64,000 nt of DNA from Candidatus Wolfebacteria bacterium RIFOXYD12_FULL_48_21 (lineage in GTDB: Bacteria; Patescibacteriota; Minisyncoccia; UBA6257; UBA9933), in assembly GCA_001793945.1 (NCBI GenBank), contig MGIW01000006.1:70179-134178 (forward strand), in the 5' to 3' direction. A model generated the notes under the pieces. It had not been told where the DNA came from, searched no databases, and saw only the letters and a program-made list of their open reading frames with translations. Each line of letters starts with the position of its first letter. Position 1 is the first letter of the stretch. Of the stretch, positions 2,302 to 58,296 are shown in pieces. Both the position numbers and the translations under genes were made by a program.

Positions 2302-2372
2302 TGCCAGATCGTCTAATGGTAGGACAGCGGACTCTGAATCCGTCAATCTTGGTTCGAATCCAGGTCTGGCAG
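2302..2372 (+). tRNA. tRNA-Gln (anticodon CTG)
   Basis: Manual cloverleaf. Acceptor tgccaga/tctggca, D-loop aatggta, anticodon stem gcgga/tccgt, loop ctCTGaa, T-arm cttgg-ttcgaat-ccagg. Confidence 0.75.
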
Positions 2373-2461
2373 CAGCGCACCATTCGGTGCACTGCTTCGC
2401 TAAGAAGCAGAAAACGAATGGTAAGCGTCGGGATGCACCGTATGGTGCGTCTCCCCACGCT

Positions 2462-2761
2462 ATGAAATTTTATTATGTTTATATCTTAAAAAGCATCAAG
2501 AAGCGTTTTATTTATACGGGCTATACTACGGATCTTGGGCGTAGATTTAAAGAGCATAATAATAGGGAAGAGCTATCAACAAAGCACTACGCACCTTTTG
2601 ATCTGATCCATTATGAAGCATATAGAAATCAGAAGGATGCGAAACGACGCGAGGGATACCTGAAAACAACAAAAGGGAAAACAACCCTACGAACCATGCT
2701 CAAAGAGTATTTTGAAAATGATTCAGCACCAGGAGGTGCCTTGCGTGAATCGGTAGAATAA
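2462..2761 (+). CDS. Small GIY-YIG domain protein
   Basis: KFYYVYIL...FIYTGYTTDLGRRFKEH matches the GIY-10/11aa-YIG-R-E/H pattern. Coding sequence is AT-rich. Confidence 0.7.
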   Translation: MKFYYVYILKSIKKRFIYTGYTTDLGRRFKEHNNREELSTKHYAPFDLIHYEAYRNQKDAKRREGYLKTTKGKTTLRTMLKEYFENDSAPGGALRESVE

Positions 2762-2943
2762 AACAATTAAAGAAATGGATCCGTGCCAAAAAAGAAGCCC
2801 TTATTGCGGGGGATTTAAAGTTGCTTAAGGAATTGTAACCTCCCTTGCCCAACCCCTCTTAGGGGCGTATTATGGAGGGAATAGGGGGGGTAATTAAAGG
2901 TACCTGACCCTATTACTCCCAAATTATTAAATTAATATAAACT

Positions 2944-3561
2944 ATGGAATATTTCTTTCAATATATATTCAGCGGGATAGCGACTATAGTAACTGGCACC
3001 GTCGCTATAGCTATCTACTTTCATCAAAAGCGTAACAATAAAATCCAGGCAGCAAGGGTTTTACTAACAGAAATTAGAACCGCCGAGGAACAGATTGGAG
3101 TTATTAGGGAAAAGATTATTACAGGGGATACATCGGACATGCCAAATTCTGTTTTTCAAACTAATAATTGGAAAAAATATGCACACTTATTTGTAAGCAA
3201 TTTTGATCAAGATGATTTAAAATTGATAAATTCATTTTATGATTACGGTGAATTAATAGAGGAATTTGCAAAGAGAGAAAGTAATTATTTTTGGATAGCG
3301 ACAGAGGAGCGCGCAAGAATAACAGTGCAGATGATTGCTAGATTTGTAGATGAGGAATTTCATAAAATTCCACAGGAGAGGGATACTAATAATATAGAAT
3401 TAAAAAAACAATTTTTTAATGTTGGTATGGATAACCATAACACTCCTTATTCTCCTAAAAAAACTCTCAAAGGAATAGAAAACCGTTTATCAAAAATTCA
3501 AACAATAACTACTTCGAGTACGGGTGCCAAGCTAAAAAAACTTGCAAAATTAGATAAATAA
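2944..3561 (+). CDS. Hypothetical membrane-anchored protein (single N-terminal TM helix), very AT-rich
   Basis: ORF of 205 aa with an N-terminal hydrophobic segment SGIATIVTGTVAIAIYF. GC is far below the window average. Confidence 0.5.
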   Translation: MEYFFQYIFSGIATIVTGTVAIAIYFHQKRNNKIQAARVLLTEIRTAEEQIGVIREKIITGDTSDMPNSVFQTNNWKKYAHLFVSNFDQDDLKLINSFYDYGELIEEFAKRESNYFWIATEERARITVQMIARFVDEEFHKIPQERDTNNIELKKQFFNVGMDNHNTPYSPKKTLKGIENRLSKIQTITTSSTGAKLKKLAKLDK

Positions 3562-3835
3562 TATTAGCGCTCAAGGTGCGTCGATGGGGTTGGTAAAATT
3601 GGCTCAAAAAAGCCTTACAGAGTCTATTCGGCGGTGGTTCTAACTCGACTTAGCCAGCCATTCGACTCGCTCCGCTCGCTCATGGCTTTCAGCCCCTCCG
3701 ACAAGCTTAGTATGGGTCAATAAAATAAGACCGCCCCTTGAGGCGACCTTATTTTATTGCGTGCATCGGGTGTGGCTATTTGCATTATATTACAATTTGG
3801 AATATAACGCAACGGAATACTATCATATATACATC

Positions 3836-4057
3836 ATGACAAAGGCGATATTTTCAAAAGACCACAAATATGCGGTTGAACAGGTAAAGAAAGCCCGTAT
3901 TGAGGCAGGCTTGGGTCAAGTCGAAGTGGCGAAGCTACTTGGCAAAACCCAGCCACACATATCAAAGATTGAAGCAGGGCAAAGACGGCTTGATATTACG
4001 CAGCTCAAAGAGTTTGCAAAAATCTATAAAAAAGACTTGTCTTTTTTCATCAAATAA
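3836..4057 (+). CDS. XRE-family helix-turn-helix regulator, candidate controller (C) protein of the R-M system
   Basis: VEVAKLLGKTQPHISKIEAGQRRLDITQL is an HTH_3 motif. Its stop lies 1 nt before the restriction endonuclease start codon. Confidence 0.75.
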   Translation: MTKAIFSKDHKYAVEQVKKARIEAGLGQVEVAKLLGKTQPHISKIEAGQRRLDITQLKEFAKIYKKDLSFFIK

Positions 4058-4058
4058 C

Positions 4059-4760
4059 ATGACACTTGCAGAACTCAAAAAGAAGCTCAAAAATATCAAG
4101 AGACTTGGCTTCGTTAAAACTCACCGAAAGGGCGATACGGGGATAGGCAAAACCCTTGAAGATTTACTCGGAATAAAAGAAAACAACATTCCGCTCCCTG
4201 ATATTGGCGAGATTGCAGAACTAAAGGCGTATCGTCGAAGCGCAGGATCCATGCTTACTCTTTTTACTCTTGAACCTCAACCAAAAGGTGGCGATCGAGA
4301 TAGAACGCTTCTTGATAATTTTGGATATTCAAAAAGAGATAATGGTCGCTTAAAAGAACTACACAGCACTCTTTCCTGTAAAAGATATAACAACCAAGGT
4401 TTGAAACTCAAAGTTGAAAAAGACAAGGTCCGCGTTGTTGGTAAAGGGAAAAGACTCAATATCTATTGGGACATGGAGGATTTGAAGAAAAAGTTTGAAG
4501 CTAAGCTTCCAGCCCTCGTCTATGCTTTAGCAGATAATAAAGAATTAAAAGGCATCGAGTATTTTTATTTTAATCAAGTATATTTCTTGGAAGGTTTTGA
4601 TTTTGAGCATTTCAAAAATATGGTCAAAAAAGATGCGATTGTTGTCGATCTCAGGATGTTCTATCGACCAAATGGATCTGTTCGTAACCACGGTACTGGA
4701 TTTCGGGTGAAAATAAACCAGTTATATAATTGCTTTGATACGAAAGTTGAATTGCTTTAG
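4059..4760 (+). CDS. Type II restriction endonuclease, MvaI/BcnI-like family
   Basis: The HRKGDTGIGKTLEDLLGIKENNIPLPDIGE...LKAYR...LTLF segment resembles the MvaI_BcnI family from memory. Convergent and tail-overlapping with a DNA methyltransferase gene. Confidence 0.6.
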   Translation: MTLAELKKKLKNIKRLGFVKTHRKGDTGIGKTLEDLLGIKENNIPLPDIGEIAELKAYRRSAGSMLTLFTLEPQPKGGDRDRTLLDNFGYSKRDNGRLKELHSTLSCKRYNNQGLKLKVEKDKVRVVGKGKRLNIYWDMEDLKKKFEAKLPALVYALADNKELKGIEYFYFNQVYFLEGFDFEHFKNMVKKDAIVVDLRMFYRPNGSVRNHGTGFRVKINQLYNCFDTKVELL

Positions 4761-6622
4761 TTTTTCCTCAATACAACAATGCTCTCTTTGTTCATTGTTT
4801 CCTCCAGCGCACCAACAATGTTGGTCGGCGAGTTTTTGATCGGCATTCTTTTCCCTGGAATATTACGGACGATTATATCTTCGCAAGTAAAGCCAATCTT
4901 CTCGGCAAGCTCGGCAATAATAAAATCGGTAGGGATTCTAACTTGTTTCACCAATCTGTTACCTATAACAAGGCAAAAATATTTTCTTGGTTTAAGGATT
5001 CTATGAGCCTGCTTCAAACACTCATTCAATCCAAGATTAAAGCTTAATACATCTTTTGCTCTGGCTTCGTCTTGATTCGCAATTTTTTCTAAGGATTCTT
5101 TAAGATAATTGGATGAGAGTATGTGGGTTAGGTTTTTAGCAGCTCTGCCACCGAGTAGATCGTTATCTACGCCAGAGGCATCATTTGGATTATCAAATAC
5201 ATCAATCCACTGCGCCGATAGGCGGGAAAATTGTCCATATGCAACTGTTGTTCGGCTATCGCCGTATGGCGGAGAAGTGATAATGCAGTCAATAGAATTT
5301 GCTTTAATCCCATTGTCTTTTGACGAATCTCCGTAGATTATTTTTGTCCACGAATCCTTATTCGCATCTTTGTAAAATTCGGTCATTCCTACAATATTTT
5401 TTTCTGCATTTTTGCGAAAGATTGCCAATACATTTGGATTATGTCTTTCAAGTTTTTCTCCTTTAACACGCACCAATTTAAACTCTCCAGTTTTTGCGTT
5501 GGAGGAATAACGGACGGTCTCACTAAAGGCAACCATTAAGAAATTTTGAATTGGCTTGTCTTTTATTTCGCGTATGGCTTTTTTTAGCTTGGCAAGTTCA
5601 ATAATTACTTTATCCTTAAACCAAAAATCAATGTTCTTGAAATCCGGTCGTTTTATTTCGTTATCTTTTATTTTTGCTACTCTATCGAGTAAAGATAAGT
5701 ATTCTTTTGTTAGTTTTTGAGGATTGATTGGACTCATTTTTGCTTTCGCAAGAAAAATAGCCAAAGGGTTAAGGTCAATTCCGTAGGCATTTCTCCCTAT
5801 CAATCTGCTTTCGACAAGCGCCGTACCCGAACCGCAGAAAATATCACAAATTGTATCGCCTTTTTTGCTATAGGTTTCCAGCAGTCTTCTTCCGACTTGT
5901 GGAATGAACATTGCGGGATAGGTATGTATTCCATGCGTGTATGATTTTGTTTTTTCACCTCTATAATCCCACGAGTAGTCTATTTTGCGGACATACTTTT
6001 CATCCCTTGATTGTCCTTGGTCAAGCTGTGATTCAAGATTGCGAATTATTTTTACAACGACACCTCTGACTTCCACTTCATCGCGATATATCGGGAATAG
6101 TGTTGGATTCGCGGGTTGCAATCTAAATCTCCCATTCTCTCGGTATAGTTTTTTTAGTGTTGCTTCGTTGTTATCTATTACCGCTACAACGGTCTGGCCA
6201 TTTTCCGCCACTTCTTGTTTTCGGATAACTACAATATCGCCATCAAAAATACCGTCATCAATCATGCTGCTGCCTTGCACACGCAAGGCATAGTGCTTTC
6301 CTTGCTGTCCGATTTCGTCTTTTGTGATAGTGATAGTTTCATCGGGGATTTCGATCGCCTCAATCGGTTGTCCGGCGGCGATCGCTCCTAAAATAGGTAT
6401 TTCGATAGTTTGTTTCGCTTCTACCGTTGAAACAGCACGAGGTTGATTGTGTTCTTTATTCAAGAAGCCAGCATCTTGTAATTTGCTAATGTAATAATGG
6501 GCCGTGGAAACAGAGGCGAGCTTGAATTTTTGCCGTATATCTTCAAGAGAGGGGGCATAACCATGCTTCGCTCTGTAAAATTTGATGAAATCAAGAACTT
6601 GCACTTGCTTTTTTGTGAGCAT
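4757..6622 (-). CDS. LexA repressor fused to an N4/N6-type DNA methyltransferase (SPPY motif IV, m4C-like)
   Basis: Single 621-aa ORF. Residues 1-205 align along the whole of LexA: wHTH, AAGQP cleavage site, GSSM Ser, LKKL Lys. Residues about 215-621 carry HTYPAMFIP...DIFCGSGTALVES (motif I) and DCIITSPPYGD (motif IV). Confidence 0.75.
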   Translation of the reverse strand: MLTKKQVQVLDFIKFYRAKHGYAPSLEDIRQKFKLASVSTAHYYISKLQDAGFLNKEHNQPRAVSTVEAKQTIEIPILGAIAAGQPIEAIEIPDETITITKDEIGQQGKHYALRVQGSSMIDDGIFDGDIVVIRKQEVAENGQTVVAVIDNNEATLKKLYRENGRFRLQPANPTLFPIYRDEVEVRGVVVKIIRNLESQLDQGQSRDEKYVRKIDYSWDYRGEKTKSYTHGIHTYPAMFIPQVGRRLLETYSKKGDTICDIFCGSGTALVESRLIGRNAYGIDLNPLAIFLAKAKMSPINPQKLTKEYLSLLDRVAKIKDNEIKRPDFKNIDFWFKDKVIIELAKLKKAIREIKDKPIQNFLMVAFSETVRYSSNAKTGEFKLVRVKGEKLERHNPNVLAIFRKNAEKNIVGMTEFYKDANKDSWTKIIYGDSSKDNGIKANSIDCIITSPPYGDSRTTVAYGQFSRLSAQWIDVFDNPNDASGVDNDLLGGRAAKNLTHILSSNYLKESLEKIANQDEARAKDVLSFNLGLNECLKQAHRILKPRKYFCLVIGNRLVKQVRIPTDFIIAELAEKIGFTCEDIIVRNIPGKRMPIKNSPTNIVGALEETMNKESIVVLRKN

Positions 6623-6679
6623 ATAATAGTATTATAGAAAATAATTAGAATATAAACAAATTAACTTATCCCCACACAT

Positions 6680-6976
6680 ATGCTAAAATTTAGTAGAATC
6701 CAAAAATTCACGAAAGCAAATATAGCCAATGTCCCTCAAGACAAAGCTATCATCTATAAAATAAAAAGCAGGAGCGGAGAGAACCTATATACAGGAATCG
6801 CCGGTCGCGGTCGCGGACAGGATCGCCTCGTAGAACACAAGAACATTAAGAAAGATCAAATCCCTGAAGGAACGAGATTTCAGTATGCGCAGGTAAAAAC
6901 GAAAGTGCGCGCCCACCAGATCGAAAAATCTATTATTAAAAAGGAACAACCCGAGCATAACGAGCAACACAAATGA
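6680..6976 (+). CDS. Small GIY-YIG-like protein
   Basis: IIYKIKSRSGENLYTGIAGRGRGQDRLVEH fits the GIY...YIG...R...E/H spacing. Overlaps the next gene by 4 nt. Confidence 0.45.
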   Translation: MLKFSRIQKFTKANIANVPQDKAIIYKIKSRSGENLYTGIAGRGRGQDRLVEHKNIKKDQIPEGTRFQYAQVKTKVRAHQIEKSIIKKEQPEHNEQHK

Positions 6977-7818
6977 ATTACGCTTTCCAGCCCCAACCGA
7001 AACCAATGCGAGTGCATATTTTTGATGTTGAACACGGAGAATGTAGCGCTATAGAGACACCATCGGGCGAGTTAATTTTGATTGGTGCCGGACATAATTT
7101 ATCAACGAACTGGAAACCTTCCGACTGGCTCAAGAGTCGTAATCAGCGACCTCATTGCTTGGTTTTGAGTAACCTTGATCGCGACCATCTCTCTGATTTG
7201 CCGAGTTTTGAACCGGGAATTCGTCCTGTTTCAATCAAGCACAACAACTCTGTAAGTCCTGACTGGGTTGAAAATTTGAAAATCGAGGAAAGTGGCGAGG
7301 TACACGATAGTATTAAGACAGCTCTTCATTGGGTGCGAAATGTTTTTACAGGTGAATCCATAAATCCAGACTATGGAATGGAAAAAATGTTTTTTTACCA
7401 CTCACCGACGAAATTCCAAGATACCAATAATTTGAGTGTCGTTACATTCGTTTCTTACAATAATATCGGCATCATGTTTCCGGGCGACCTTGAAACTGCA
7501 GGGTGGCAAGAATTTTTGAAAGATCAAAACTTCTTAACTTATCTGCGCAGGACGAATATATTTATTGCTTCGCATCACGGTCGCGAAGGAGGATACTGCA
7601 AAGAAGTTTTTGATTATTGTAGCCCTCACGCAGTCATCATTTCCGACAAGCCGGTGGTTCACGGTACCCAAGACCATGATCTTTATAGCCAACATTGTAG
7701 CGGTTTAGATTTTAGTGGTACAAACAGAAAAGTTTTGACTACGCGAAACGATGGAAAAATAACTATAGAAGTTCCTTCGACTGGCTCGTATACTGTGTAC
7801 ATCAATCAAGCCTACTAG
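6973..7818 (+). CDS. Metallo-beta-lactamase-fold hydrolase
   Basis: NLDRDHLSDL is an HxHxDH-like motif. IASHHGREGG further downstream. Confidence 0.65.
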   Translation: MNYAFQPQPKPMRVHIFDVEHGECSAIETPSGELILIGAGHNLSTNWKPSDWLKSRNQRPHCLVLSNLDRDHLSDLPSFEPGIRPVSIKHNNSVSPDWVENLKIEESGEVHDSIKTALHWVRNVFTGESINPDYGMEKMFFYHSPTKFQDTNNLSVVTFVSYNNIGIMFPGDLETAGWQEFLKDQNFLTYLRRTNIFIASHHGREGGYCKEVFDYCSPHAVIISDKPVVHGTQDHDLYSQHCSGLDFSGTNRKVLTTRNDGKITIEVPSTGSYTVYINQAY

Positions 7819-7827
7819 GTTAATAAT

Positions 7828-8316
7828 ATGAAAGACATTCTCGACAAAATAACTTCTTACAATCTTTTCAATTACCTACTGCCCGGGGTGCTCTTTGTTG
7901 CTATTTTAGATAAATTCACGATTTACTCACTTACGCAGGAAAATCTCGTCGTTGGAGCTTTTGTATATTATTTCGTAGGATTGGTAATAAGTAGATTTGG
8001 TTCGCTGATTATCGAACCGTTTTTGAAGTCAGTATCTTTTCTGAAATTTGCTGATTATGCCGATTTTGTTTCTGCGTCAAAAATTGATTCCAAAGTCGAG
8101 AATTTTTCGGAAGTAAATAATATGTACCGGACATTTACTGCAATGTTCGTCTTGCTCCTATTGCTCAAAGGTTACGAATTACTTGCTGTTAAAATTTCGA
8201 TATTGGGCGAACACACCCCATTGATTTTGGTGGCAGTACTTTTGACGATGTTTCTTTTTTCGTATAGAAAACAAACTGGTTATATAACAAAGAGGATTAA
8301 AGCGAGCAAATCCTAA
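7828..8316 (+). CDS. Hypothetical multi-pass membrane protein
   Basis: Several hydrophobic helices. AT-rich. Follows the MBL-fold gene with a 9-nt gap. Confidence 0.5.
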   Translation: MKDILDKITSYNLFNYLLPGVLFVAILDKFTIYSLTQENLVVGAFVYYFVGLVISRFGSLIIEPFLKSVSFLKFADYADFVSASKIDSKVENFSEVNNMYRTFTAMFVLLLLLKGYELLAVKISILGEHTPLILVAVLLTMFLFSYRKQTGYITKRIKASKS

Positions 8317-8446
8317 TTTGTAATTAACGAGGTCAGATACCATTGATTGCCATTTGTTATAGAAGAAAGAAGCGATATACTGTATATAATGCCATGTATC
8401 CCATGCATTGATGTTGGAGGGATATTTATTGTGTTATTAACCGTGC

Positions 8447-8481
8447 TAATTTGCTATAAATGGGGTAAACCACTATCATTC
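8447..8481 (+). promoter_or_regulatory. Candidate sigma70-like promoter (ttgcta-17-tatcat)
   Basis: Read as ttgctataaatggggtaaaccactatcat, ending about 10 nt upstream of the 8490 start. Confidence 0.3.
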
Positions 8482-8489
8482 CATCACTT

Positions 8490-8954
8490 ATGAAAAAAAT
8501 CTCAATACTATTTCTTCAGGCGGTCACTGTGCTTATTGGCATTGGTGTTCTTGCCTTTCTGCTTTGGGAGCCGTGGGTGGAAGGCGTAAACGCACACGCT
8601 ACTTCGTTCTTTGACATCTATTTTGACGATCCCTTTTTGGCATATATGTATCTTGGGTCCATCCCATTTTTTGTAGGGCTTTATCAGGCATTCAAAGTGT
8701 TGGGATATGCCGGGCAAAACAAGATATTTTCGCAAGTGACCGTGAACGCTTTGTGGACTATAAAATACTGCGCGTTCATTACGGCGGGCGCAGTAGTGGC
8801 GGCAGATGCCTACCTCATGATAGCCGCACGCAGCAGCAACGATGATGCCGCAGGAGCCGTGATGCTTGGCATGATAGCCACCCTCATCTTGCTTGTTGTC
8901 GGTATAGTTGCGGCGATGTTTGGGCGGACTTTGCAGAATAGGGTCCAGTCTTAA
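8490..8954 (+). CDS. Hypothetical membrane protein (4 TM)
   Basis: ORF of 154 aa with four hydrophobic segments. Confidence 0.55.
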   Translation: MKKISILFLQAVTVLIGIGVLAFLLWEPWVEGVNAHATSFFDIYFDDPFLAYMYLGSIPFFVGLYQAFKVLGYAGQNKIFSQVTVNALWTIKYCAFITAGAVVAADAYLMIAARSSNDDAAGAVMLGMIATLILLVVGIVAAMFGRTLQNRVQS

Positions 8955-9991: not shown

Positions 9992-10079
9992 TTGTCATCC
10001 CGGCGGAGGCCGGGATCCAGGTTTGTATGCACTACTTGGATGTTCAGACTCTGGATACCGGCCTCCGCCGGTATGACAG
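9992..10079. repeat. MITE-like element with about 29-bp terminal inverted repeats
   Basis: ttgtcatcccggcggaggccgggatccag ... ctggataccggcctccgccggtatgacag. Confidence 0.7.
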
Positions 10080-26497: not shown

Positions 26498-27583
26498 ATG
26501 TTCGGAATAAAATTGTTTGGCACATCTTCATATCTTGGCGTCGATATCGGAACTACATCCATCAAAATTGCCGAGATCGGCAAGGGTGGGCATGGTCCCG
26601 AATTGCAGAACTACGGTATTTTGGAGAGCTATGGCCATTTGGAACGGGTCAATAACGCCATTCAGACGAGCGCGCTCAAGATCATGGAGGCGGACACCAT
26701 CCAGCTGTTAAAGACATTGATCAAGCATTCCAATTTTAAATCGCGCGACGCGATTGCTTCCCTACCGTCGTTCGCCGCGTTCATCACATTGTTTGAAATG
26801 CCGCAAATGAACGACGCAGATATCGCAAAGACGATGCAATTTCAGATCGGACAATATATTCCGCTTCCTCTTACCGAAGTTTCCATTGATTGGCTCAAGG
26901 TGGGCGAGCGGCAGGATGACCAAGGGTTCGTCAAGGAGCAAATATTACTCGTGTCCATACCAAATGAAACGATTGAAAAGTATCAGCGTATTTTTGCCGC
27001 CGCAGGCTTGCGGTTGCGTGCCATTGAAATAGAAAGCCTTGCGCTGTTGCGTTCAGTCTCCGATGCAAACATGCCGCCGACGATGGTCGTCGACATCGGT
27101 TCGCGATCGACGAACATCGCGGTCGTGGACAAGGGAAATCTCCGCTACAATTTTCAAACTGATATGTCAGGCGCGGGCATTACACAAGCCCTTGCTGGCG
27201 GGTTGGGAATCAAGATCCGCCGTGCGGAAAAATTGAAACGCGAGCGCGGCATCCTTGGCGGTTCCGAATCTGAACTATCCACATTGATGATGCCGTTCGT
27301 AGATGCTATACTGAATGAGGTAAAGCGCGTAAAAACAAAATACGAACAAAGCTTCGGTACCGTGGTCACGCAAGTGATCCTTGCCGGAGGCGGTTCAAAG
27401 ATGCCGGGTCTTGCTCCCTATGCGCAGGAGCAACTCGGACTTCCTATTGTGATCGCCGATCCGTTTCAAAAGATCCATTATCCTGCGGCGCTTGAACCCA
27501 TCGTGCGTGACCTCGGTCCTTCGTTTGCCATTTCCATCGGTCTCGGCATCAAGGAATTTGTCGAGGCACATCCCGCGGTCTAA
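26498..27583 (+). CDS. pilM: Type IV pilus assembly protein PilM (actin-like ATPase)
   Basis: [15 protein letters not shown] and the overall PilM architecture. Confidence 0.85.
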
Positions 27584-27585
27584 GG

Positions 27586-27780
27586 GGTGTGAGTATGGAG
27601 GCACGAGGTGTGAGATATGAGGTATGAGGTATGAGGTATGAGATATGAGGTATGAGATATGAGAATAAGATATATCTCTCGCCTCCCATCTCCCATCTCC
27701 CATCTCCCATCTCCCATCTCCCATCTCCCATCTCCCATCTCCCATCTCCCATCTCCCATCTCCCATCTCCCATCTCCCAT
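27586..27780. repeat. Heptanucleotide tandem array of about 28 units: (gtatgag-type) x14 then (ctcccat) x14
   Basis: Read directly. 7-bp periodicity is continuous from the pilM stop to the pilN ATG at 27779. Confidence 0.9.
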
Positions 27781-28327
27781 GTCGTATACCCAATCAGTTC
27801 TGCAAACAGAATTATCAAAACAGCGTGAAGCTGCAGCTGGCTGGCCATGGCGGCTGATGACATTTTCTTTTGTCGTCTTCCTCGCAGTCGCAGCTGTATA
27901 TATCGGCATGCGATTTGGCTTCGAGAAAGTTTATTTGAAGCGCGCATTGTCTCAAGAAGAGGCTGAGTTTACTTCGACCTTCAAATCGGTAAGCACGGAA
28001 GAGCAAAAGTCCGTTTTTAATTTTTATTCGCAGTTAAGCAATATTGATACCTTGTTGAAAAAACAAGGGAAAGCGACTCCCCATCTTTCATTCATTGAGC
28101 AAAATACCCTTAAGACGGTCACATATTCCGGCATGGATCTTCGATTTGCCGATCGTTCTGTCGTTATCGTTCTGAATGGCAAGACCGCGGCTTATGCGTC
28201 GGTCGTTCAGCAGCTTGAACTGTACAAACGAGTTTCGACCGTTACTGAAGTTAAATTATTGGGCGCCCGTTTTATTAGTCCGGCCGAGGGTGTTGATTTT
28301 TCCATTCAAATAACCGCAGCGCGTTGA
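27779..28327 (+). CDS. pilN: PilN-like pilus assembly protein (possible N-terminal extension to 27659 through the repeat)
   Basis: Short cytoplasmic N-terminus, one TM helix, periplasmic domain. Position between pilM and pilO. Confidence 0.6.
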
Positions 28328-50651: not shown

Positions 50652-50684
50652 CCAGATGGCGGACCGTTTATTGTTCATATGTCT
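50652..50684. terminator. Bidirectional terminator
   Basis: aaacggtccgcc agat ggcggaccgttt. Confidence 0.6.
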
Positions 50685-51130
50685 ATACCCTTGGTTCGAT
50701 AGAATTCGGTCAGATACTGCTTGAGGTCGGCCCGTTCGGATTCGCTTTCGATGATGTGGTAGGCAATAGACAGTTCGTCCGGCTTATCGACGACCTGTGG
50801 AAACGGGGACCGATCCACACCGATGATTGTTTCGATAATATCCTTTCGGATGTTTGTGGAAGATCCAATATAAAATGGTTTGTTCGCGCAGAGGACTACA
50901 TAGACTCCCGGCTTTGCATCCATGGCAAGGATCGTTTTGAGCGATAGGTTTGCCATCCCCTGGGGGGAGCGGCCGATGTCGAGGTAACCGTTCTTTCGTA
51001 GGCGTTCTATATGATAGGAAACCGTGTTTGTCGACGACACTCCGATCTGGCGGGCTATTTCGCGAAACGAAGGAAGTGCCCCACCATTCTTTTCAAAGAT
51101 ATCCAGTATTTGTTTTTGCGCTTTGGTCAT
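50675..51130 (-). CDS. LexA-type winged-HTH DNA-binding domain fused to a GIY-YIG nuclease domain
   Basis: N-terminal MTKAQKQILDIFEKNGGALPSFREIARQIGVSSTNTVSYHIERLRKNGYL is LexA_DNA_bind-like. C-terminal GVYVVLCANKPFYIGSSTNIRKD is GIY-YIG. Confidence 0.6.
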   Translation of the reverse strand: MTKAQKQILDIFEKNGGALPSFREIARQIGVSSTNTVSYHIERLRKNGYLDIGRSPQGMANLSLKTILAMDAKPGVYVVLCANKPFYIGSSTNIRKDIIETIIGVDRSPFPQVVDKPDELSIAYHIIESESERADLKQYLTEFYRTKGIDI

Positions 51131-51324
51131 GATGAAAATAAATTAGAACGCGGATAGAACAATAAAACATGAGCAGTATTCAATGCATTTATTCTACTAT
51201 AGAACAATTATAGAACACTGGTAATCCATAGTCAATTATTACTCAACTTACGCTTATATCGAATGAATTCAAGCGGCGATAATAAACACGGCAAATCATG
51301 TGCTAATTCGTTAGCAGCCCCTTC

Positions 51325-51436
51325 TGTCATCCCGAGTGCAATGTAGCGAAGCGGAGTGAAATCGAGGGATCTGTAGTTGTGGATGACAGTATGTTCCTTC
51401 CTCAGCCATGCGGACTGAATGCTCAGGAATGACAAT
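51325..51436. repeat. MITE-like element (tgtcatcccgag ... ctcaggaatgacaat termini)
   Basis: Internal block identical to the 769-934 copies. Confidence 0.7.
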
Positions 51437-58130: not shown

Positions 58131-58296
58131 TACGGGTCCGCCAGCCGGCGGATCCGGCGGGAATCTGGGGCCTGTGTCATTCCGGCGGAGGCCGGAATCC
58201 ATTTCAACCTCGTGCGGAACGCACAATTATAGATGCGCGTGTCGCGCAAAGGTGGAAGTGGATCCCGGGTTAAGCCCGGGATGACAATCTTCTGTG
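58131..58296. repeat. Cluster of MITE/REP-like palindromes
   Basis: gtccgccagccggcggatccggcgggaat..., tgtcattccggcggaggccggaatcc and gatcccgggttaagcccgggatgacaatc. Confidence 0.65.

Follow-up and report, generated by a model that had tools for sequence, protein, structure and literature searches.

We analysed a 64,000-nucleotide stretch of DNA, here called the window, from Candidatus Wolfebacteria bacterium RIFOXYD12_FULL_48_21, a member of the Patescibacteria (contig MGIW01000006.1, positions 70,179 to 134,178). One gene in the window (4757..6622, minus strand) encodes a LexA repressor joined in frame to a DNA methyltransferase. It lies beside genes for a restriction endonuclease and a controller (C) protein, and its promoter carries a predicted LexA operator. 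Our analysis suggests that DNA damage raises production of this methylase.

The fusion gene was identified from an open reading frame (ORF) listing, from Pfam, NCBIfam and PADLOC matches, and from related loci. As a preliminary description of this DNA had claimed, it is a single ORF, which begins with ATG, contains no internal stop codon and encodes 621 amino acids followed by a stop; the same ORF is present in most related loci. Its N-terminal part is a complete LexA module. Residues 1-65 form a DNA-binding domain of the LexA winged helix-turn-helix (wHTH) type (6428..6622, minus strand, as for all features of the gene), whose recognition helix contains SVSTAHYYISKLQ and which Pfam LexA_DNA_bind matches over residues 2-63 (44 bits, cutoff 23.7). 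Residues 76-196 form an S24 autopeptidase and dimerisation domain (6035..6397), matched by Pfam Peptidase_S24 over residues 76-190 (99.8 bits). The NCBIfam lexA equivalog TIGR00498 aligns residues 2-196 with positions 4-202 of its 203 (170.6 bits, cutoff 110.95). Against solved LexA structures, phmmer matched the Thermotoga maritima protein 3K2Z across its full length (109 bits). The preliminary description had placed the cleavage site in AAGQP, the catalytic serine in GSSM and the catalytic lysine in LKKL; these motifs begin at residues 82, 117 and 156, and alignment with 3K2Z and with E. coli LexA (7B5G/1JHH) equates Ala83-Gly84, Ser119 and Lys157 with E. coli A84-G85, S119 and K156. The predicted self-cleavage bond is thus encoded at 6371..6376, Ser119 at 6266-6268 and Lys157 at 6152-6154, and the concern that the Ser/Lys dyad might vanish on careful alignment is laid to rest.

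The C-terminal part, residues ~215-621 (4760..5980), is a Type II amino-methyltransferase. PADLOC MTase_II, a 446-position model, matches residues 215-620 with 437 bits, and Pfam N6_N4_Mtase matches with 76 bits split over two stretches, so that all three of the domain models proposed for checking the fusion find their domain. Motif I, FCGSGT (residue 262; 5822-5839), and motif IV, SPPY (residue 450; 5264-5275), lie where the preliminary description had put them, and the order X - I - variable region - IV is the alpha-type arrangement. A canonical LexA is a standalone two-domain protein of ~200 amino acids; with 621 residues and a C-terminal methyltransferase, the protein studied here includes a LexA without being a canonical one. 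Annotation in public sources is inconsistent, with members of the family named 'PspGI methylase', 'cytosine-N4-specific methyltransferase' or 'transcriptional repressor LexA'. A full-length AlphaFold2 model, built from an alignment of 32 sequences of at least 88% identity, was too poor for use (mean predicted local distance difference test score 44.5, predicted template modelling score 0.36).

The fusion is widespread. In a search of 5.8 billion proteins clustered at 90% identity, we found at least 120 clusters with the identical Pfam architecture, mostly of 621 amino acids, which answers the suggestion that databases be searched for it. The assemblies come from JGI, ENA, NCBI and Logan, and the named taxa include Parcubacteria, Vogelbacteria, Yonathbacteria, Kerfeldbacteria and Paceibacterota. 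When one genome per GTDB species was scanned, 400 stretches that encode a relative were recovered; our analysis used the best 80 of these loci, which come from species-representative metagenome-assembled genomes, nearly all labelled Patescibacteria (these and further related loci are numbered here with the prefix L). Most of the 80 carry an uninterrupted ORF of ~621 amino acids with 65-93% identity, and in a few it is disrupted or cut at contig ends.

Conservation extends to both halves of the protein. A83, G84, S119, K157, the motif I glycines and SPPY are invariant in all 68 full-length orthologues. Among these 68 genes, the pairwise ratio of nonsynonymous to synonymous divergence (dN/dS) was 0.10 for the wHTH, 0.20 for the cleavage linker, 0.03 for the S24 domain (the lowest in the protein), 0.09 for the junction between LexA and methylase, and 0.04 for the methylase domain. 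Synonymous divergence is ~1.1, near saturation, and the high protein identity therefore reflects strong constraint and not recent spread. By these measures, the S24 protease domain is as constrained as the methylase and under strong purifying selection.

The neighbouring genes define the setting of the fusion. Convergent with it lies a gene for a Type II restriction endonuclease of the MvaI/BcnI family (4059..4760, plus strand; Pfam MvaI_BcnI 183.8 bits, covering almost the whole model; PADLOC REase_II), and directly upstream of the endonuclease gene is a gene for a 73-amino-acid C protein (3836..4057, plus strand; Pfam HTH_3 46.9 bits). The endonuclease and methylase genes overlap in their stop codons (4757-4760); since no terminator fits between them, transcripts of either gene must run antisense into the opposite one. 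A promoter-like site at 3797-3826 precedes the C and endonuclease genes and overlaps a putative C-box region, TTTGGAATATAACGCAACGGAATACTAT (3796..3823, plus strand), that is conserved upstream of C genes; across loci these boxes are distinct for each C-protein variant, as C-boxes would be. In nearly all of the best 80 loci, the next gene downstream of the fusion encodes an endonuclease, and the order LexA-methylase, convergent endonuclease, C protein recurs in L001 and in nearly all of the 80. A homologue of the 73-residue C protein stands at the matching position in L001, L084 and many further loci, and the sequence outside the cassette varies between loci. Judged by gene content and order, the fusion gene is the modification gene of a three-gene Type II restriction-modification (R-M) cassette, consisting of a C protein, an MvaI/BcnI-family endonuclease and a LexA-methyltransferase.

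The window itself bears on the specificity of this cassette. CCWGG occurs 21 times where 55 are expected, a ratio of 0.38 that is the lowest among the 32 palindromic NNWNN/NNSNN pentamers (the next-lowest is 0.77), and CCSGG shows no notable depletion. The depletion fits a CCWGG specificity of the MvaI/PspGI type acting in this lineage, and the cassette is probably CCWGG-specific and N4-cytosine-modifying. Among L002-L081, methylases that are ~90% identical pair with two variants of the MvaI/BcnI-family endonuclease, one 70-92% and the other 34-40% identical to the window enzyme, and there are at least two variants of the C protein in these loci, with boxes that match the variant.

The 60 nt before the ATG of the fusion gene hold, in order, TGTGGGGATAAG, a putative -35 box TTGTTT, a 17-nt spacer containing TTCTAATTATTTTCTA, a predicted -10 box TATAAT, 8 nt and the start codon. 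On the minus strand, the -10 box lies at 6631..6636 and is conserved in orthologous upstream regions; the -35 box lies at 6654..6659 and is conserved as well, reading TTGTAT in most orthologues; and TGTGGGGATAAG, just upstream of the -35 box at 6665..6676, is the window variant of a conserved element, TGTGGATAAC. Only 8 nt separate the -10 box from the ATG, so that the transcript probably has no leader or almost none. At orthologous loci, upstream similarity begins exactly at TGTGGATAAC and continues through CTTGTATAC and TTTCTAtttaTTTTCTATAAT; beyond this segment the sequences are unrelated. Some related loci (L022, L024, L029, L036, L042, L051, L054-L058, L060, L071 at 5129, and L085) have promoters ~30 nt farther upstream, which gives an mRNA with a leader, and there a conserved GTCAA(T/G) precedes the start by 5-15 nt with no visible Shine-Dalgarno sequence.

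The spacer contains the predicted LexA operator, a direct repeat TTCTA-N6-TTCTA with a period of 11 (6635..6650, minus strand), which overlaps the -10 box. The preliminary description had suggested a search for a LexA-box-like palindrome upstream of 6622. The sole palindrome near the start codon, the AT-rich ATAATA-C-TATTAT, is not conserved across loci and was rejected; the conserved element is the direct repeat instead. When the best direct repeat was sought over periods of 7-20, period 11 was chosen in 45 of 77 upstream regions. Exact TTCTA-N6-TTCTA occurs three times in the window against 0.04 expected, a ~75-fold enrichment, and all three matches belong to promoters of genes for a LexA-type wHTH, of which the window has two: one match is in the methylase promoter and two are in that of the other gene. 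Loci totalling 590 kb hold 62 exact matches, of which 55 fall within 160 nt upstream of the start codon of a LexA module, and most of the remaining seven also lie upstream of LexA-module genes, either farther away or in loci outside the index of the first scan. Direct-repeat operators have precedent: the alphaproteobacterial LexA box is GTTC-N7-GTTC, also a period-11 direct repeat (PMC8565304), and the LexA of Patescibacteria is cited among the lineages with evolved direct-repeat recognition (PMC7739468).

The most telling support for the direct repeat as operator comes from its co-variation with the recognition helix. In most loci, a helix of the form ..SVSTAH[Y/H/F].. (or ..STVHF..) pairs with TTTCTA-N5-TTTCTA in either orientation, and in eight of eight loci a helix ..ST[V/I]H[Q/E]H.. 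pairs with TTCGGT or TTCGGG at equal spacing. No locus crosses between these two helix-operator classes. The pairing extends to fusions with other kinds of methylase: a gamma-class N6-adenine fusion with helix SVATVHQH has the operator TTTCGGT / TTTCGGT (L082), a D12 fusion with SVSTVHFH has TTTTCTA / TTTTCTA (L084), and a Type IIS fusion with PSTVHQH has CTTCGGT / TTTCGGT (L085). In a C5 fusion (L086), the helix LSGVYQH accompanies the imperfect repeat ATTCTGT / TTTCGGT. Because the repeat is conserved and enriched, covers part of the -10 box and changes in step with the recognition helix, the LexA module is very probably an autorepressor, acting on its own promoter.

A second feature of these promoters is TGTGGATAAC, which is the reverse complement of the DnaA-box consensus TTATCCACA and lies ~5 nt upstream of the -35 box. 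It is present, in either orientation, in nearly all LexA-module promoters (L002-L086), including that of a standalone lexA gene in L071. In the 590 kb of loci, 56 copies lie near LexA-module starts and 35 elsewhere, the latter being about the chance level by our estimate. We rejected the idea that it is a general promoter element, given that copies outside LexA promoters are at this level, and also the idea that it is the terminal inverted repeat of a mobile cassette, given that the C-gene end carries no matching copy. The element could link expression to DnaA and replication status.

The other LexA-type gene in the window is a 151-amino-acid ORF (50675-51130, minus strand) that joins a LexA-type wHTH (41 bits) to a weak GIY-YIG nuclease-like domain but lacks an S24 protease. 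Two exact GTTCTA-N5-GTTCTA repeats stand in its promoter (51144-51216), one of them over a TATAAT box. Besides this promoter and that of the methylase, we found no further SOS boxes in the window. The gene may encode an SOS-regulated or self-regulated nuclease.

How specific is this LexA to methylases? With the LexA module by itself as query, we searched 1.84 billion cluster representatives. Almost all of its closest relatives (~45-67% identity) are N-terminal modules of proteins of 233-890 amino acids, and standalone LexA proteins of ~200 amino acids predominate only below roughly 50% identity. In fifty diverse fusions, the C-terminal parts form at least 18 unrelated clusters, with Pfam domains N6_N4_Mtase (31), Eco57I-type (7), N6_Mtase (5), D12/Dam-type (5), C5 DNA_methylase (3) and TaqI_C (2); all fifty retain the Ala-Gly, Ser and Lys, and their named members are Patescibacteria. 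The genomic contexts of four diverse fusions are again R-M cassettes, for example with a convergent ORF and a C protein beside the fusion in L084 and a RE_Alw26IDE endonuclease in L085, and in L037 and likewise in L056 two LexA-methylase cassettes lie side by side. Identities of the two halves are decoupled within the 621-residue family: L045 shows 61% for the LexA part and 88% for the methylase part, and L078 shows 85% and 61%, which points to module exchange. Plasmid-borne methylase orthologues of cultured bacteria (35-46% identity) align only from residue ~205-219 onward and lack the LexA part. No LexA-methylase fusion was found in INPHARED phages, PLSDB plasmids or IMG/VR contigs, and we therefore rejected a phage or plasmid origin. 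Altogether, these comparisons point to a LexA clade dedicated to R-M methylases.

One related locus shows a fused and a free LexA together. In L071, a standalone 196-amino-acid LexA, 63% identical to the module, is encoded 1.8 kb from the cassette, and its gene has the same promoter layout with the operator CTTCTAT-N4-CTTCTAT. Thus, the fused module coexists with at least one resident standalone LexA of Patescibacteria whose operator is of the same type, and for this reason the cassette is probably connected to the SOS regulon of its host.

The window cassette lies in a low-GC island (2500-8500; 32-44% GC against ~50%) with a tRNA-Gln (CTG) gene at its left edge (2302-2373, plus strand), which suggests that the island was horizontally acquired and inserted beside the tRNA gene. 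PADLOC also identified a PDC-M48 candidate defence pair nearby (6973-7818 and 7828-8316, plus strand), and the R-M cassette therefore sits in a defence island. The A component of the pair is a small membrane protein (215 bits) and the B component has an MBL/ComEC-like fold (166 bits). Another defence-island context is seen in L001, an 813-kb Paceibacterota contig (JBAZVG010000001) in which the cassette adjoins a CD-NTase gene, resembling those of cyclic-oligonucleotide-based anti-phage signalling systems (CBASS), and a NUDIX gene (L001 9062-9940).

How does the fusion compare with known systems? Like the LexA proteins of the TIGR00498 family (E. coli, B. subtilis, T. maritima), it has a wHTH, an Ala-Gly loop and an S24 Ser/Lys domain over the full length of LexA, with a predicted operator in its own promoter, and the period-11 direct repeat gives that operator the geometry of the alphaproteobacterial box. 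Unlike these standalone repressors, however, it is joined to a methyltransferase of ~410 amino acids and travels in a mobile R-M cassette, and its predicted cleavage would free the DNA-binding domain from an enzyme, which goes beyond the inactivation of a repressor. Methylases with an N-terminal HTH that represses their own promoter through an overlapping operator are well documented, including M.SsoII/M.Ecl18kI, M.EcoRII, M.MspI and M.ScrFIA (PMC3874152). The fusion resembles these in having its own N-terminal DNA-binding domain and an operator, here deduced by comparison, that overlaps its own promoter. The HTH of the SsoII-type enzymes, however, is short and simple, lacks a protease and answers to no known signal, whereas the fusion carries a 196-residue LexA with an intact S24 domain and has a convergent endonuclease gene under the separate control of a C protein. 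As read from sequence, the design would be the known logic of HTH-methylases with a DNA-damage input added.

Similar likenesses and differences hold for the cassette as a whole. R-M systems of the MvaI/BcnI/PspGI type recognise CCWGG or CCSGG and produce N4-methylcytosine, and the cassette matches them in its MvaI/BcnI-family endonuclease, its SPPY methylase and the depletion of CCWGG in the window; yet the characterised methylases of this type, like the plasmid orthologues, lack the LexA extension. C-protein systems such as PvuII, BamHI and Esp1396I share the small HTH gene directly upstream of the endonuclease gene and the variant-specific promoter boxes, but their methylase is constitutive or C-controlled, whereas here it has a predicted independent circuit based on LexA. 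CapH/CapP of CBASS, lambda CI and SetR of SXT likewise hold an element in check with a repressor that is proteolytically inactivated upon DNA damage. In those systems, however, the repressor is a separate protein and not fused to the enzyme it regulates, and CapP is a metallopeptidase, a different kind of protease from S24. The outcome that we propose below, less self-restriction when repair creates unmodified sites, resembles the restriction alleviation of Type I systems after damage, although the mechanism there (degradation of the restriction subunit HsdR by ClpXP) is entirely different. We found no comparable dedicated restriction alleviation for Type II systems in the searchable literature, and no published description of a LexA-methylase fusion in the full-text literature, a search that did not extend to REBASE or to a 2017 paper on the SOS response of Patescibacteria. 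The fusion belongs with self-regulating R-M methylases and with LexA-type repressors on mobile elements, and is not a new category.

We propose that the methylase gene is autorepressed and that damage derepresses it through RecA-stimulated self-cleavage of the fusion, relieving self-restriction, and we assign this proposal a probability of slightly under 0.6. In a first step, the fusion would dimerise through its S24 domain and its winged helices would bind TTCTA-N6-TTCTA over their own -10 box, so that the methylase represses itself; this autorepression has strong comparative support. In a second step, RecA filaments on single-stranded DNA (ssDNA) would stimulate self-cleavage at Ala83-Gly84 by Ser119/Lys157 and detach the DNA-binding domain. 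Damage, repair intermediates, or resection of breaks that the cassette's own endonuclease makes at unmethylated sites could each act as the trigger. We infer this step from the invariance of the catalytic residues together with the strong constraint. The last residues of the detached N-terminal fragment would be ...AIAA, similar to the ...VAA terminus through which the N-terminal fragment of E. coli LexA becomes a ClpXP substrate. In a third step, the promoter would be derepressed and methylation capacity would rise, the S24-methylase fragment probably staying active. Stronger methylase transcription would also run antisense into the convergent, overlapping endonuclease gene and lower its expression, as we infer from the gene layout; convergent promoter interference is documented in R-M systems (PMC3874152). 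The net outcome would be an SOS-coupled relief of self-restriction followed by a reset to autorepression, that is, negative feedback. Because the cleavage residues are invariant, the S24 domain is under purifying selection and the operator on the -10 box co-varies with the helix, methylase expression responsive to RecA*/SOS appears to be the best-supported reading.

Several points weigh against this proposal. A promoter scan with the E. coli consensus did not call the methylase promoter, and its -35 box matches the consensus at three of six positions. The operator counts are inflated by kinship among the loci, so that their independence rests on three to four operator/helix classes and on the different methylase classes. 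No recA gene was found in the window, nor in the related loci except for one edge fragment in L060; the presence of the RecA co-protease is assumed from general knowledge of Patescibacteria. If the S24-methylase fragment were degraded after cleavage, the outcome would be reversed. Finally, it is not self-evident why a fused LexA would be needed if the promoter is already under repression by the LexA of the host.

The reversed outcome leads to one alternative, a damage-triggered suicide with the logic of abortive infection, in which RecA-stimulated cleavage would mark the S24-methylase fragment for proteolysis and the methylase would act like a labile antitoxin: methylation falls, the endonuclease persists and the chromosome of the heavily damaged or infected cell is cut. 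Both cleavage fragments of E. coli LexA are substrates of cellular proteases, which counts for this idea, as do the strict conservation of the cleavage machinery and the defence-island setting beside the PDC-M48 genes, with the CD-NTase gene in L001. R-M systems are also known to act as addiction modules resembling toxin-antitoxin pairs (PMC3874152). However, the operator lies on the gene's own -10 box, and cleavage would therefore derepress new synthesis of the very same full-length methylase. Moreover, methylation already present on the chromosome persists when there is no replication, and no degron is evident in the sequence of the C-terminal fragment. For the first of these reasons in particular, we regard suicide as unlikely.

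Alternatively, the LexA module could be only an autoregulatory domain for DNA binding and dimerisation, like the HTH of SsoII-type enzymes, with damage-responsive cleavage being physiologically irrelevant. Autoregulation of methylases by an N-terminal HTH is well established (PMC3874152), and our operator evidence supports repression but says nothing direct about cleavage. Nevertheless, neither the Ala-Gly bond nor Ser119 nor Lys157 is needed for binding or dimerisation, yet these residues are kept in every one of the 68 orthologues and 50 fusions, and dN/dS reaches its minimum for this protein in the S24 domain. The predicted ...AIAA end of the N-terminal fragment, with its likeness to the E. 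coli ClpXP signal, also argues for cleavage. A module that only binds DNA is therefore an improbable explanation.

A further view holds that the fusion serves mainly as the master repressor of the host SOS response with the methylase as a passenger, or that the cassette captures SOS control so that its loss deregulates SOS, a form of addiction. The fusion scores as a lexA equivalog, the window contains no other LexA with an S24 domain, and the operator type is common to a resident standalone lexA gene and to the window's other LexA-wHTH gene. However, the fusion gene moves with the endonuclease and C genes through unrelated genomic contexts and lies here in a low-GC island beside a tRNA gene, a standalone LexA coexists with it on the L071 contig, and its nearest LexA relatives are almost all methylase fusions, as expected of a clade dedicated to R-M. 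A role as host repressor is compatible with our proposal through cross-talk, but not with the mobility of the cassette or the coexisting resident LexA, and we give it little credence. Least of all can the fusion be an assembly or frameshift artefact that joins two adjacent genes: we found no evidence in favour of such a join, and it is ruled out by the recurrence of the continuous ORF in at least 120 clusters from independent assemblies and in most of the 80 loci (65-93% identity), with the junction itself under purifying selection.

The proposed derepression of the methylase by damage may be one case of a more general arrangement. We tentatively suggest, at somewhat less than even odds, that the LexA module and its promoter (with TGTGGATAAC and the period-11 SOS box) form a portable unit that has been attached to every major class of R-M methyltransferase across the Patescibacteria, and that provides built-in damage-sensing feedback together with co-regulation by the host SOS response. 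Breaks or ssDNA would generate RecA*, which would lead to cleavage of the LexA-methylase and hence to more methylase and less endonuclease. If this is true, Type II systems would possess a dedicated mechanism of restriction alleviation, and mobile R-M cassettes, through the operator shared with resident LexA, would both belong to the host SOS regulon and help to regulate it.

Further features lie in the island and elsewhere in the window. An ORF of 98 amino acids with a weak GIY-YIG-type match (6680-6976, plus strand) is divergent from the methylase promoter and is common only to the window and L009, and another GIY-YIG ORF with a clear match (57.6 bits; ~2470-2761, plus strand) follows just after the tRNA gene within the island. 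A 28-nt hairpin-forming repeat, TGTCATnCCGGCGGAGGCCGGnATCCAG, occurs at 1804-1831, 9993-10020, 10051-10078 and 58175-58201; the two copies that start at 1804 and 10051 flank the low-GC island and show 96% complementarity, but the repeat is also found outside these positions. Another interspersed repeat, ~65 nt long, is present at 769-833, 870-934 and 51325-51389. Heptanucleotide tandem repeats are present at 652-769, as (GAGRTAT)n, and at 27567-27800, as (ATCTCCC)n with ~18 copies.

Why would a methylase carry a LexA? A Type II R-M system is a danger to the cell that carries it each time repair, recombination or fast replication leaves unmethylated sites behind. Type I systems have a dedicated restriction-alleviation mechanism, and we know of no comparable mechanism for Type II systems. 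A methylase released by the universal signal of DNA damage would be a simple, self-correcting circuit against R-M autoimmunity, and would also be a new route by which a mobile defence element enters the SOS network. In addition, the direct-repeat operators and their matching recognition helices offer a natural series of specificity variants for the study of DNA recognition by LexA. The fusion is abundant in public data and strongly conserved across a whole superphylum. Patescibacteria largely lack CRISPR and depend on R-M systems. Because the LexA-methylase design is widespread and strongly conserved in a group with this dependence, it may be a significant part of genome defence in the Patescibacteria.

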